Source: Methanomicrobia archaeon (GTDB lineage: Archaea; Halobacteriota; Syntropharchaeia; Alkanophagales; Methanospirareceae). Taken from it: a DNA stretch of 64,000 nt. The stretch covers positions 1,260-65,259 of the forward strand of contig DSCO01000022.1 of the NCBI GenBank assembly GCA_011049045.1, written 5' to 3'. Both the position numbers and the translations under genes were made by a program. Below the pieces are notes generated by a model. That model saw only the letters and a program-made list of their open reading frames with translations. It made no database searches and was not told the origin of the DNA. Positions within the stretch are counted from its first letter, which is position 1. Each line of letters starts with the position of its first letter. Below, in pieces: positions 23,403 to 27,375 of this stretch.

Positions 23403-24542
23403 TTACCTTAAACGGCACGACTGACTGAGCGCGGCCATGAAGCGCCGCTTCAGCGCCGGGGCCCCTAAGGGGATGTTTCCGACGTCGGCATTGCCGGGCT
23501 TAACGGTAACGTGGAGAAATCGCGGACCTCGAGTTTCGTATACCCCCTCCAGCAGGGATCGCAACTCTGCTTCTGTCGTTGCCCGCTGGACCGTCTCGAT
23601 GCCCGCGCTGAACGCCATCAGGTCCATATCCATGTACGGTGCAGGTTGGTCGCCGGTGCTACCCCAGGTGCCATTATCCAGACACACAACGGTCAGATTC
23701 TCCAGCCGCAACTCGGCGATGAGCGGCAAAATGGTGCTCATCTGGAGACTGCCATTGCCATCCAGCACCAGCGTCTCCCGTCGTGTCTTCAACGCGACAC
23801 CCAGCCCGATCGGAGAGGCCTGGCCCAGGCTGCCGAGCATGTAAAAATGCAACTCGCGATCTTTAGCAGCATACAGCTCCTTGCTCGGCACGCCTATGTT
23901 CGCAATCACCGCTTCTTCGCGCAGATACTCGGTGATTATGCGTATCGCCCCGTATCTGCTCAGCTCAGGCCTTCTCCGGTCGCGGGTATACTTAAGGACG
24001 CACGGCTTATCGTATTGCGGAACGGTAGTTACCGGTATCCGTTCATCAGGGTCCCAGGTCCGCGGCGAGATGAGCGCGATATGCGGGCGTTCATTCTCGA
24101 ACGCGTCTTGAATAACAGCCTCTACTGATCCCAGCTGTGTGGCATCCTCTATGATCGTGTGTTTCAGATCCAGCGCAGCCAATAGTTTCGGCAGTGCAGT
24201 TCCCAGGGGAACCTGCGCCTCGATGCGCTCGTTGTACACACCGCGCCAGCTGGCCAGTATCGGTAACGGCAGCTCATACGTAACCGTGAGCGACATGAGG
24301 GCATTGAGTACTGTACCCAGGCCCGTGCTCTGGATGATCATGAGCGGCTTGCCACCTGCGAGATACGCGCCTGCCGAGATCCCAACGCCGTTCTCTTCAC
24401 GGTTCAAGCCGACATGGCAGAGTGCTTGATCGTGCGCTACAAGCTGCAAAAGCGCACTGAATTTCTCACAGGGCAGCGTCGAGACCACGTCTATCTTGTT
24501 CCGCTTCACTATCTCCAGGACGGCGCGTGCGGGTTCGGGCAT
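23403..24542 (-). CDS. comDE: sulfopyruvate decarboxylase, fused alpha/beta (ComDE), TPP-dependent
   Basis: 379 aa = two TPP-enzyme halves; TPP-binding LVLDGNGSLQMS; adjacent cysteate-synthase-like gene. Confidence 0.7.
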   Translation of the reverse strand: MPEPARAVLEIVKRNKIDVVSTLPCEKFSALLQLVAHDQALCHVGLNREENGVGISAGAYLAGGKPLMIIQSTGLGTVLNALMSLTVTYELPLPILASWRGVYNERIEAQVPLGTALPKLLAALDLKHTIIEDATQLGSVEAVIQDAFENERPHIALISPRTWDPDERIPVTTVPQYDKPCVLKYTRDRRRPELSRYGAIRIITEYLREEAVIANIGVPSKELYAAKDRELHFYMLGSLGQASPIGLGVALKTRRETLVLDGNGSLQMSTILPLIAELRLENLTVVCLDNGTWGSTGDQPAPYMDMDLMAFSAGIETVQRATTEAELRSLLEGVYETRGPRFLHVTVKPGNADVGNIPLGAPALKRRFMAALSQSCRLR

Positions 24543-24678
24543 GGGTGCTCTTAGCGGTAATGAAACCTATAAGCGTCACTGCTATTGAGGCTTATGGCGG
24601 TAGTAGTAGGTATCCTGAATTCGAGTGCGCTTAGCTTTTCCTGGCATGTACGACGCTGCGAGCGAAGGGTGTTATGTT

Positions 24679-25962
24679 CTACAAAGCCCGAACAAACTCC
24701 CGGAGCTCTCTTTCTACGTCATCCAACCTCCATTCAGCGGGCTGGAGCGCCATCCGCTTTTCTATGTGATAGAGCGTGCAATCCTGCTTCACCCGTTTAT
24801 AGCCGCCGCCGGTGATATTCAGCAAAATCCTGTCCTCCCGCTTGACCACACCCTCCGCAACAGCTTTCAGTAAGGATGCAACCGCCACGGCTGCTGCAGG
24901 ATCCAGATCGATCCCCTCCTCAGCCTCGAATAACCGTTCCGCTTCCCGTGCCTCGGCGTTCGTTATTCCGTACGTCATCCCCGCAGTGTTCGAGAGCATA
25001 TCATACACGCCACCGGTAATGGCATACGGCGGATTCCGCGTGGAGAGCACGTCCGCGTACAGCTGCCGAATCGCCTGCTCGGCATCTTTCATATCCAGTT
25101 CCGCGATGAGCTCCGCTCGACCAGCCTGCCAGGCACTGACCATAGGCGCGAACGGGAGATTCTGCGCGATCACGATCCTCGGCATTCGCGCACCAAAGCG
25201 GCCATCTACAATCAGCCGGTCGAACGCTTCCCACGCGGCGATCGCGCCCGCGCCACTGCCCACCGCCTGGAAATAAAACGCTGGCAGACCGCGCATCGCG
25301 AATGCGGCTTCGAGCTCGACCACGCCCATGCCGTCCCTTCGCGCTACGTTCTTCACACCGCCCTCCTCGACGAGTCCCTCCAACTTCGCTAGCTGCTTGC
25401 CGACGGCAATGGCATCTGAGTAATCGCCGTCCACCGCGATCAGGAAGATGTGCGCGTGGTTTCCTGTGGTCGTCCACATCCGCGTGAGGGAACTGCTTGG
25501 GACGACTGCGAGCACGGGCATGCCCGTTGCAGAAGAGACCGCAGCAAATGCTCGTGATGTATTCCCGGCTGAGGCCACAGTCACGATCTTCCCGCCCGCG
25601 CGCTCTTTCACACGCTGTACCGTCGGCAGCGCCTCCAACTCCTTGAACGTGCAGGTCTTCAGGTACGCCCCGCGCTCAGGCCAGTAGCCGCTGAAACTGA
25701 TATATAACTCGTTCAAGCCGAGCTCCTGTCCGAAGGCCCCGCTTTTGTACGTAATCGGACTCGCATTCGTCGGTACCGCCTCGTCCACGGGCAGCCAGTC
25801 GATATAGTTGAACATCCCCAGCCCGGACCGTTTACGTATCTGCTTCCTGCGGTAAACCGTACGTAACAGCGACTCGTGACCTTCCGGGCACGTATTCGTA
25901 TAGCGATCCACAACGACTTCGCCACCTGCCACACATTTCAACTGATATTTCTCTGCTTCCAT
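24679..25962 (-). CDS. threonine synthase homolog, probable cysteate synthase (coenzyme M pathway II)
   Basis: 427-aa PLP-dependent ThrC family; genomic pairing with comDE as in Methanosarcinales. Confidence 0.6.
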   Translation of the reverse strand: MEAEKYQLKCVAGGEVVVDRYTNTCPEGHESLLRTVYRRKQIRKRSGLGMFNYIDWLPVDEAVPTNASPITYKSGAFGQELGLNELYISFSGYWPERGAYLKTCTFKELEALPTVQRVKERAGGKIVTVASAGNTSRAFAAVSSATGMPVLAVVPSSSLTRMWTTTGNHAHIFLIAVDGDYSDAIAVGKQLAKLEGLVEEGGVKNVARRDGMGVVELEAAFAMRGLPAFYFQAVGSGAGAIAAWEAFDRLIVDGRFGARMPRIVIAQNLPFAPMVSAWQAGRAELIAELDMKDAEQAIRQLYADVLSTRNPPYAITGGVYDMLSNTAGMTYGITNAEAREAERLFEAEEGIDLDPAAAVAVASLLKAVAEGVVKREDRILLNITGGGYKRVKQDCTLYHIEKRMALQPAEWRLDDVERELREFVRAL

Positions 25963-25974
25963 GTTCAGTTCATG

Positions 25975-27375
25975 TCACCTCGATTCGCAGTAACTACCCG
26001 GTAAGCGTGCCACCGGTTCAGTAAGCGTGAACGTCCCGTCAGTGATCTTTTGCTTCAGCAATACGGCCAATTTTACCGCCCGTTTTCGGTCCGACTGCCG
26101 CAAGGTAACGGGAATCTCCTTTCCAGCAACGGTAACAACGCCGAGATGACCGCGAAAAGCGCCCCCGGCGCATAGTTGCACGCATGCACCGCAGTTGCAA
26201 CAGACCCCCTCGTCTCGTTCTTTCGTCCGGGCATCAAACGCCTCGGTCGGGCACCGGTTCGCGACCTCGCACTGATCGCATTCGAGACAGCGCGATCGCT
26301 CGAACCGCACGGAACGGTCACGCCAGACGTCCGCATAGGTTATCTTACCGACCGGCAGTCTTGTGTGAACGTCCAGGACGTCAAGCGGTATCGCCTCATC
26401 GAGCGTCTTTACCCTCTCCAGCAGCTGCGGGTTCACGATCGGAATGGGCACGGCCCATGCGGTCCTTATCTCCGGCCCCGCGGCAGTGCGAAAGCCGCCG
26501 AGGTACTCAGGCAGCATCCCGTGCATATCCGCACTACCCATCAAATTCGGCTTCGCCGCAGTACTCCGGGTACCCTGACCGAGAACAAAACCCTCTGCAC
26601 CGTTCATCAAGATCTTCGTGCCCATACCGATGGTCTCCATGAGCGGATCCTTCTCCAGCGGGTTCAACTCGCCACAGCCCGAGAACGTCAGCTCTCGGAA
26701 CGGCCCTTTCAAGGCGCGCACTGAGAATATCGAAGCGACGGCGTCCGCCTGTGCATTGACAAATGCGAAATAGTTCTTAAAGGCATTCCGCGTGCTGCAG
26801 AGTCGTGCAACCGGTATTTGAGCAAGATCCGTTCTCGTTTCGAGCGTCCGGCCATCTGCGGTCTCTACCACAACCGCTATCTCCTCCTGTGCAACCAGTG
26901 CTCGGAACAGATGCCCACCACCGTAGCTGCTATCCCTTCGAGACGTCCCGTAGACGATAAGGTCAACGATACCAAGCCGTTCGTTGGGGCAAGGCCCGAC
27001 AAAGGCCGGTACACCATTCAGGGTAACCGTTGTGGCACGCTCGAATTCGCCGTGTGCTGCAACGGGGATCGAAAGAACCGCATACGTCCCGCTCATGACG
27101 CCACAGGTGGCCGAGGTAACAACGTCAACATCTTCGAACCGTATCTCCTCACCGCTCCGCACACGGCTGCAGAGCTCCTCAGCGGTCATCACGACCGCTT
27201 TGTCACGCTTTAGGTTCTCCCGTATTTCCGCTAGTGTCCTTCGCTTCTCCATACGATCGTTTTTGGTCTGCGCCCGTTGTGCGCTCACCGTATATGCTAT
27301 TGCACCCGTCGCGCTAAAAATCACCGTGCGGCAGGCACGAGCGTACCGGCACCCGCGCGTTATCGTTTCGGACAC
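25975..27375 (-). CDS. COG1900/DUF39 protein with C-terminal 2x[4Fe-4S] ferredoxin domain (putative sulfur-insertion enzyme of CoM or homocysteine biosynthesis)
   Basis: C-terminal CLECDQCEVANRCP and CCNCGACVQLC clusters; true start may be MEKRRTL (~27252). Confidence 0.55.
   Translation of the reverse strand: MSETITRGCRYARACRTVIFSATGAIAYTVSAQRAQTKNDRMEKRRTLAEIRENLKRDKAVVMTAEELCSRVRSGEEIRFEDVDVVTSATCGVMSGTYAVLSIPVAAHGEFERATTVTLNGVPAFVGPCPNERLGIVDLIVYGTSRRDSSYGGGHLFRALVAQEEIAVVVETADGRTLETRTDLAQIPVARLCSTRNAFKNYFAFVNAQADAVASIFSVRALKGPFRELTFSGCGELNPLEKDPLMETIGMGTKILMNGAEGFVLGQGTRSTAAKPNLMGSADMHGMLPEYLGGFRTAAGPEIRTAWAVPIPIVNPQLLERVKTLDEAIPLDVLDVHTRLPVGKITYADVWRDRSVRFERSRCLECDQCEVANRCPTEAFDARTKERDEGVCCNCGACVQLCAGGAFRGHLGVVTVAGKEIPVTLRQSDRKRAVKLAVLLKQKITDGTFTLTEPVARLPGSYCESR

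Follow-up and report, generated by a model that had tools for sequence, protein, structure and literature searches.

A probable type-2 coenzyme M biosynthesis cluster in an ANME-1 archaeon and its neighboring sulfonate-type transporter and candidate regulator genes

Background

Coenzyme M (CoM) is the obligatory methyl carrier in both methane formation and the anaerobic oxidation of methane. The last step of its biosynthesis was the final one to remain unassigned, a gap that has been largely closed elsewhere by the identification of methanogenesis marker 16 metalloprotein (MMP16) as ComF. The question considered here is raised by a 64,000-nucleotide stretch of archaeal contig DSCO01000022.1 (hereafter the window), in which three co-directional minus-strand open reading frames (ORFs) exactly span positions 23403-27375 in the ORF list. 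They encode a fused sulfopyruvate decarboxylase, a ThrC-like enzyme, and a COG1900 protein with a ferredoxin module. Does the COG1900 protein serve CoM synthesis, or is it a homocysteine enzyme that merely lies beside CoM genes? We regard it as very likely, from sequence comparison, that the three genes form the standard type-2 (cysteate synthase) CoM biosynthesis cluster of an ANME-1 (Methanophagales) archaeon, ANME standing for anaerobic methanotrophic archaea.

Kuehl et al. (2014) noticed that Methanoculleus marisnigri has a DUF39 gene beside those for cysteate synthase and a fused ComDE, and put this gene forward for the final step of CoM synthesis (PMC4045070). According to Chadwick et al. 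(2025), who cite White (2019), MJ1681 lets Escherichia coli turn sulfoacetaldehyde into CoM (PMC12068725). The genetic work of Chadwick et al. in Methanosarcina acetivorans showed MA3297 (cs), MA3298 (comDE), and MA3299 (MMP16) each to be involved in CoM synthesis, with MMP16 as the primary CoM synthase; deletion of cs or comDE yields a CoM auxotroph, and the MMP16 deletion mutant is CoM-dependent, being a full CoM auxotroph without sulfide (PMC12068725). The same study found physical clustering of CoM genes in six orders, and its S1 Table already records comDE, cysteate synthase, and mmp16 for ANME-1 genomes, among them GCA_004212135.1, the source of one locus compared below (L004) (PMC12068725). 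Since the CoM synthase role was already in print (proposed in 2014, reported in E. coli in 2019, and confirmed by genetics in 2025), the window contributes no more than one further ANME-1 orthologue, from a lineage tabulated in 2025, and the finding about its COG1900 protein is correct but ordinary. An initial annotation of the window, arguing from gene neighbors as Kuehl et al. had done, favored a CoM-specific role for the protein, which stands, and had called the family biochemically unresolved, which the papers of 2014-2025 have superseded.

The coenzyme M gene cluster

The first gene of the cluster, comF (25975..27252, minus strand), encodes a 425-aa member of the MMP16 family (COG1900d) that matches TIGR03287 over the whole model (511.8 bits against a cutoff of 363.95, E 8e-154, model positions 1-391 of 391). 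Twelve bp separate its stop from the start of a gene for a ThrC-like, pyridoxal phosphate-dependent cysteate synthase (24679..25962, minus strand, 427 aa; PF00291). This protein scores 586.6 bits with the cysteate synthase equivalog TIGR03844 (cutoff 324.9), whereas the best threonine synthase model reaches 93 bits (cutoff 303), and it is 50-54% identical to the cysteate synthase that lies beside MMP16 in Methanosarcina. After a gap of 136 bp comes the gene for the fused sulfopyruvate decarboxylase ComDE (23403..24542, minus strand, 379 aa), 45-47% identical to, and syntenic with, Methanosarcina ComDE. Its alpha half passes the cutoff of TIGR03845 (191.3 bits against 147.95), and its beta half matches PF02775 at 48.5 bits. 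The thiamine pyrophosphate (TPP) motif, L-D-G-N-G-S-X25-D-N-G, occupies residues 260-291 (23655-23765); the initial annotation had seen the motif but read it as GDG(N)GS, where the sequence has LDGNGS.

Given the profile E-values and an arrangement that is kept in related genomes, the cluster lies far beyond chance expectation. Profile matches and synteny likewise bear out the earlier view that the fused ComDE and the ThrC-like gene represent the Methanosarcinales-type (type 2, cysteate synthase) route to CoM.

The closest relatives of the window's MMP16 come from metagenome-assembled genomes (MAGs) of ANME-1, including Ca. Methanospirareceae and Methanophagales, at 70-87% identity, and a partial protein of 323 aa (P0038) is 90% identical over 76% of the query. 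Further out, identity falls to 63% in Alkanophagales and to about 52-55% in Syntrophoarchaeum, Methanosarcina, and Methanothrix. ANME-1 genomes are tabulated with mcrABG (S1 Table, PMC12068725); no mcr gene appears among the genes listed for the greater part of the 64 kb window.

The proposed pathway is pieced together from family membership and orthology. Cysteate synthase would combine O-phospho-L-serine with sulfite to give L-cysteate, which would then be converted to sulfopyruvate by an aminotransferase encoded elsewhere; no candidate for this step appears in the window's gene lists, and in M. acetivorans the step has been assigned to a non-specific aminotransferase (PMC12068725). The fused ComDE would carry out the TPP-dependent conversion of sulfopyruvate to sulfoacetaldehyde. 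MMP16/ComF would then replace the aldehyde with a thiol, converting sulfoacetaldehyde to 2-mercaptoethanesulfonate (CoM) by reductive thiolation; genetics has established the CoM synthase role for the orthologue in M. acetivorans, and the conversion is known for MJ1681 and MA3299 only. The 2x[4Fe-4S] module within the protein probably relays two electrons if the sulfur donor is sulfide, or four if it is S0 or a persulfide.

Several known systems can be set beside the window. MA3297-MA3299 of M. acetivorans are the same three gene families side by side; in the Methanosarcina loci that were fetched MMP16 converges on comDE-cs, whereas comF, cs, and comDE of the window are co-directional. Methanocaldococcus jannaschii presumably uses the type-1 (ComABC) route to CoM, unlike the archaeon of the window. 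Its MJ1681 is described, in the source that cites the E. coli work, as the M. jannaschii MMP16 homologue, and is likened to the window's protein on that description (PMC12068725). The neighborhood of Memar_0110 in M. marisnigri (Methanomicrobiales), again likened by its description, has the same gene neighbors as the window in another order (PMC4045070).

The COG1900 protein

The longest ORF for this protein, 27375..25975, begins with a GTG at 27375, and the likely start is an ATG at 27252 that gives 425 aa. An independent gene call on an identical public contig (ERZ27245514 k141_4001) also starts at ATG 27252 and yields 425 aa, and MMP16 homologues are 417-426 aa long. The ATG leaves a divergent intergenic region of 197 bp, versus 74 bp with the GTG.

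As judged by sequence, the protein belongs to the CoM-type subfamily (MMP16, COG1900d) and not to the homocysteine one. Aligned with the MMP16 of Methanosarcina sp. T3 (P0105, used as a stand-in for MA3299), it shows 53% identity across 98% of its length, the ferredoxin segment included. The conserved COG1900d cysteines are present, C88 (Cys95 of MA3299) in an invariant GPCPNE and C193 (Cys202 of MA3299) in a nearly invariant GCGELNP. Where Methanosarcina has CGCG the window has SGCG, so that the non-conserved Cys200 is absent.

Of the cluster motifs in the ferredoxin module (26137..26307, minus strand), CLECDQCEVANRCP spans residues 322-335 and CCNCGACVQLCA spans residues 351-362; none of the eight Fe-S cysteines varies among 51 homologues. 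The initial annotation had described a di-cluster ferredoxin at the C-terminus. The two clusters are confirmed by the eight cysteines, but the module is not strictly C-terminal: it is an insertion at about residues 316-372, with some 50 residues of the COG1900 domain, including the last strand-helix, after it. An AlphaFold2 model of the protein (mean pLDDT, the predicted local distance difference test, 93.2; pTM, the predicted template modeling score, 0.92) agrees with the ferredoxin as an insertion.

Weighing other readings of the cluster

Several points count against the assignment of these genes to a standard type-2 CoM cluster, or against parts of it. The ComDE beta half has TIGR03846 as its best match but, at 191.6 bits, falls under the cutoff of 221.5, and the phosphonopyruvate decarboxylase model TIGR03297 scores nearly as well (188.8 bits, cutoff 312.5). 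No Methanosarcina entries occur among the best 120 homologues of the SsuA-type protein encoded downstream of comDE, where the named ones are ANME or archaeal MAGs. The gaps of 136 bp before comDE and 160 bp before ssuA, the latter with a TATA-like element, mean that the six genes from comF to ssuB may be two or three transcripts. Genome-level consistency is judged from relatives, since mcr, the aminotransferase, and any COG1900a paralogue lie beyond the window. Finally, M. acetivorans can do without MMP16 once sulfide reaches 0.4 mM, and its protein requires neither Cys200 nor Cys202 (PMC12068725), observations that speak against taking the chemistry of the step as settled.

The alternative that survives best, which we still consider unlikely, is that MMP16 is a broader reductive thiolation or sulfur-trafficking enzyme that also serves coenzyme B (CoB) or another thiol. 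A double mutant without MMP16 and L-aspartate semialdehyde sulfurtransferase (hereafter L-ASST) was unobtainable in M. acetivorans even with CoM, from which the authors suggest overlapping extra roles (PMC12068725). MMP16 also occurs without nearby CoM genes in some ANME-1 and Alkanophagales (L026-L031), and HdrD-like proteins with CCG domains recur upstream of it in both ANME-1 and Desulfobacterales. Against this breadth stand the correlation between MMP16 and the sulfoacetaldehyde genes in archaea that encode methyl-coenzyme M reductase (MCR; p = 4e-58, PMC12068725) and the window itself, where comF ends just 12 bp upstream of cysteate synthase, comDE is next, and no CoB-pathway gene is adjacent.

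Far less probable is the reading in which the COG1900 protein is the homocysteine enzyme, L-ASST (COG1900a), lying beside CoM genes while a CoM paralogue is encoded elsewhere. PF01837, which the window's protein matches at 336 bits, is after all named "homocysteine biosynthesis enzyme" (HcyBio), and L-ASST partly replaces MMP16 in M. acetivorans (PMC12068725). The L-ASST pair of MA1821 and MA1822, a COG1900a protein with a small ferredoxin, indeed shares with the window's protein the COG1900 fold family, an analogous aldehyde-to-thiol chemistry, and a 2x[4Fe-4S] carrier (PMC12068725). A direct comparison is offered by a COG1900a protein of Ca. Alkanophaga liquidiphilum (L030:2203-3723; PF01837 489 bits, two CBS domains), which is followed by a 132-aa ferredoxin. 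Identity between the two is 28%, as opposed to 53% with Methanosarcina MMP16, and the long gap in their alignment falls exactly at the window protein's ferredoxin segment. The COG1900a protein has a separate ferredoxin, a C-terminal CBS pair, and a Cys54-type cysteine, and the window's protein lacks all three: its ferredoxin is internal, as in MMP16, a Pfam search found no CBS domains in it, and the position of Cys54, which is essential in L-ASST (PMC12068725), aligns to Met53/Ser54 (GAMCSS in COG1900a, GVMSGT in the window). The TIGR03287 cutoff is passed as well. The initial annotation had allowed for a homocysteine-type protein here and a CoM-type paralogue elsewhere; the protein proved to be of the CoM type, and a hidden Markov model built from 12 MMP16 sequences found no second COG1900 ORF in six-frame translations of the 64 kb window. 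ANME-1-THS is likewise tabulated with one COG1900 gene, its MMP16 (S1 Table, PMC12068725).

The same Ca. Alkanophaga liquidiphilum locus (L030 900-5176) has its own MMP16 gene, followed by the COG1900a gene (HcyBio plus two CBS domains, 506 aa), the 132-aa 2x[4Fe-4S] ferredoxin, and a radical SAM protein, and thus places two COG1900 subfamilies next to each other in one operon-like array.

A phosphonopyruvate decarboxylase in place of ComDE, and with it a phosphonate rather than CoM as the product of the cluster, is scarcely credible: the TIGR03297 score, similar to that of the ComE half, which is itself below cutoff, and the pst/phoU phosphate operon next door speak for it, but that score is far under its own cutoff, the ComD half passes its own, the surrounding gene lists (most of the window) hold no phosphoenolpyruvate mutase, the gene is syntenic with cysteate synthase and MMP16 and its product 45-47% identical to Methanosarcina ComDE, and deletion of MA3298 makes M. 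acetivorans a CoM auxotroph (PMC12068725).

The downstream transporter

The type-2 CoM reading extends to what lies downstream. Directly after comDE, on the same strand, are the genes of an ATP-binding cassette (ABC) importer of sulfonate type: an SsuA-family substrate-binding protein (22226..23242, minus strand, 338 aa; PF13379 NMT1_2), an SsuC-like permease (21429..22208, minus strand, 259 aa; BPD_transp_1 on the identical public contig), and an SsuB-like ATPase (20672..21427, minus strand, 251 aa; PF00005 ABC_tran). The SsuA protein passes TIGR01728 marginally (165.7 bits against a cutoff of 163.5). Its gene has a GTG start after GGAGTGA, and the 160-bp gap between it and comDE contains the TATA-like sequence TTTTAATA.

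In M. acetivorans, CoM starvation raises the expression of cs, comDE, ssuA, and ssuC, the ssu system has been named a CoM-specific ABC transporter, and ssu and cs-comDE are counted among three gene clusters (PMC12068725). Like SsuABC of M. acetivorans, the window's transporter pairs its permease and ATPase with a binding protein of the SsuA family (NitT/TauT type). In the fetched Methanosarcina loci there is no ssuA homologue within 10 kb of MMP16, whereas the window has ssuABC and a divergent regulator. From the conserved gene context, the unit very probably extends downstream into this importer, which probably salvages CoM or imports a related sulfonate.

The divergent regulator

Upstream of comF and facing away from it lies a gene for a 176-aa regulator (27450..27980, plus strand) with an XRE-type helix-turn-helix (HTH) domain and an effector half-domain resembling PrpR_N and periplasmic binding proteins. 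The Pfam match to PrpR_N, 22.8 bits, is under the cutoff of 29.1. Compared with the N-terminal sensor of PrpR and with periplasmic-binding-protein-like domains, the window's regulator has one lobe only, and it carries the XRE HTH instead of a sigma-54 AAA+ module; it is outside the PrpR family. The regulator and its orthologues share an invariant Cys139 within LVCAPIVSSTVEK. There are 338 homologues, and among the best 120 the taxon-named sources are all archaeal MAG labels, mostly ANME-1, Syntrophoarchaeum, and Methanoxibalbensis.

Which neighbor does this regulator belong with? Throughout ANME-1 its place is between phoU and comF, which taken alone is ambiguous. Outside ANME-1, orthologues (56-60% identical) are divergent to ssuABC homologues in Syntrophoarchaeum caldarius, S. 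butanivorans, and Ca. Methanoxibalbensis ujae, the SsuA proteins at these loci being 33-61% identical to that of the window. In Ca. Methanoxibalbensis ujae a cysteate synthase (48% identical) follows ssuABC. Membership in the pst/phoU operon was rejected because the Syntrophoarchaeum and Methanoxibalbensis orthologues stand beside ssuABC with no pst nearby; this arrangement identifies the sulfonate transporter together with the CoM genes as the conserved partner.

The divergent intergenic region (27253..27449) between comF and the regulator contains blocks that are conserved across ANME-1 in an alignment of 21 upstream regions: one begins AAATGCCCAGTTGTAT, another is the TATA-like GATAGATATAC, and GTTATACTATACGG directly precedes the ATG of the regulator. 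Among the upstream regions the shared blocks are AAATTGCCnAATTGTATAATA, a TATA-like box, and TTATACTATA immediately 5' of the ATG. Searched against Rfam, the window gives a single hit, the tRNA at 47029, and no riboswitch or leader RNA close to the cluster.

Gene context thus makes the regulator a candidate for control of CoM synthesis and uptake, probably exerted from the divergent promoter region that lies between it and comF. A further proposal, possible but on balance doubtful, is that these genes form the core of a CoM-homeostasis regulon in the class that holds ANME-1, Syntrophoarchaeum, and their relatives. The regulator would sense CoM, its thiol/disulfide state, or a sulfonate precursor, and would co-control comF-cs-comDE and ssuABC. 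A search for published work on a CoM-linked regulator found nothing in a limited literature collection.

At some ANME-1 loci (L017, L023, and L028) the gene divergent from the regulator has a product that begins MYKKM... and continues ...ACSFGKDSM, which by eye looks like the start of a 3'-phosphoadenosine-5'-phosphosulfate (PAPS) reductase-like protein; such a protein could possibly supply sulfite to cysteate synthase. At other loci (L009, L011, L013, and L021) what survives, by eye, is a short remnant ORF that shares the MYKK start. The DNA block TTTTTTATACAT of the MYKK-type gene also forms, again by eye, the start of SsuA in Syntrophoarchaeum.

Conservation of the arrangement

How widely the arrangement is kept was judged from 80 species-representative MMP16 loci, taken from GTDB genomes and searched with the window's proteins. 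The initial annotation had pointed to co-occurrence with comDE as a check on its proposal, and cysteate synthase or ComDE does lie inside the fetched flank at 51 of the 80 loci (28 of the 43 with at least 4 kb on both sides). Within the ANME-1 clade (26 loci at 60% identity or more), comF is followed directly by cs in 19, and 14 of the 26 species-representative loci have the HTH regulator ahead of comF-cs. All of comF-cs-comDE-ssuABC is present at 6 of the 16 loci with enough downstream sequence (at least 6.5 kb). SsuA follows comDE in the ANME-1 relatives, the ATPase is kept after the permease there too, and the permease is 71-92% identical across ANME-1 loci. A 265-aa ORF (19142-19939), with no Pfam or NCBIfam match, lies just beyond ssuB and an Hsp20 gene and is 68-89% identical in the ANME-1 loci with the full cluster.

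A second ANME-1 group (G60ANME1 and relatives) has an MMP16 about 53% identical to the window's in the same operon skeleton. At one of its loci (L049 8341-16700) the order is HdrD-like protein, MMP16, ComA, ComB, ComDE, and SsuABC, ComA and ComB replacing cysteate synthase; this indicates that both archaeal CoM front ends occur within ANME-1. Two further loci (L045 and L053) also keep the skeleton running from MMP16 to ComDE-SsuABC, without cysteate synthase.

In many ANME-1 genomes, an HdrD-like Fe-S protein with CCG domains is encoded directly upstream of MMP16 (L004 8390-9988, L049 8341-9972, and L013, L015, L020, L021, and L025), and bacterial loci have one as well (L081 2378-6259, L074 3402-7053, and L046 6319-10284), the order in Desulfobacterales being HdrD-like protein, CobW-type GTPase, MMP16. 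Orthology of the ANME-1 and Desulfobacterales proteins was rejected on their local similarity of about 23%, and the association with MMP16 therefore seems to have arisen twice. From its recurrence one may suspect that MMP16 has a partner that reduces disulfides or persulfides. No HdrD-like gene stands upstream of MMP16 in the window.

MMP16 in bacteria

MMP16 is not confined to archaea, to judge from the sequences collected here. A set resembling the type-2 CoM pathway occurs in a sulfate-reducing isolate, Desulfospira joergensenii DSM 10085 (L084, NZ_ATUG01000002.1, 4845-19788). It comprises an aminotransferase, an MMP16 (511 bits with TIGR03287), a ComDE, and a cysteate synthase (363 bits); the MMP16, each half of ComDE, and the cysteate synthase all exceed their cutoffs. 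Its neighbors are two corrinoid proteins, an MtrH-like protein, an MtaA/URO-D-like methyltransferase, and a RACo activase. Five more loci from MAGs labeled Desulfobacterales or "Proteobacteria" (L046, L063, L074, L079, and L081) encode an MMP16 that is 66-71% identical to that of D. joergensenii versus 55-58% to Methanosarcina, values that make the group look like a genuine bacterial clade. A literature search on CoM biosynthesis genes in Desulfobacterales found nothing in the same limited collection.

Other features of the window

The surroundings of the cluster include V-type ATPase subunits, the pst/phoU operon, and genes resembling the futalosine route to menaquinone. The last of these are a gene run at 1819-6797 with Radical_SAM/CofH_C and VitK2_biosynth domains in the public contig annotation, a combination that we take to resemble that route. 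A second ABC importer, of NMT1/Lipoprotein_9 type (6863-9366; binding protein at 8419-9366, ATPase, and permease), lies about 12 kb from SsuABC.

Toward the other end of the window, the segment 47029-58800 has a lower G+C content (0.47-0.54 versus about 0.58 elsewhere), with a tRNA-Glu (CTC) gene at 47029-47103 near its start. The segment contains small ORFs without family matches, HTH_5 proteins, a Rad51/RadA-like gene, and a family B DNA polymerase gene (56545-58773), and it could represent a mobile element or provirus that has integrated. A search downstream for an att-type repeat matching the 3' end of tRNA-Glu found none within the window.

Implications

ANME-1 archaea cannot be cultured in isolation, and the compact comF-cs-comDE-ssuABC series with its regulator is a handy source of genes for heterologous tests. 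The occurrence of MMP16 outside archaea bears on the use of "methanogenesis marker" families to indicate taxonomy or function. In the regulator and transporter, whose pairing is conserved, there is a concrete, testable candidate for the sensing of CoM supply. If the proposed regulon is real, the CoM-starvation response, so far known only as a pattern in the M. acetivorans transcriptome, would have its first identified regulator.

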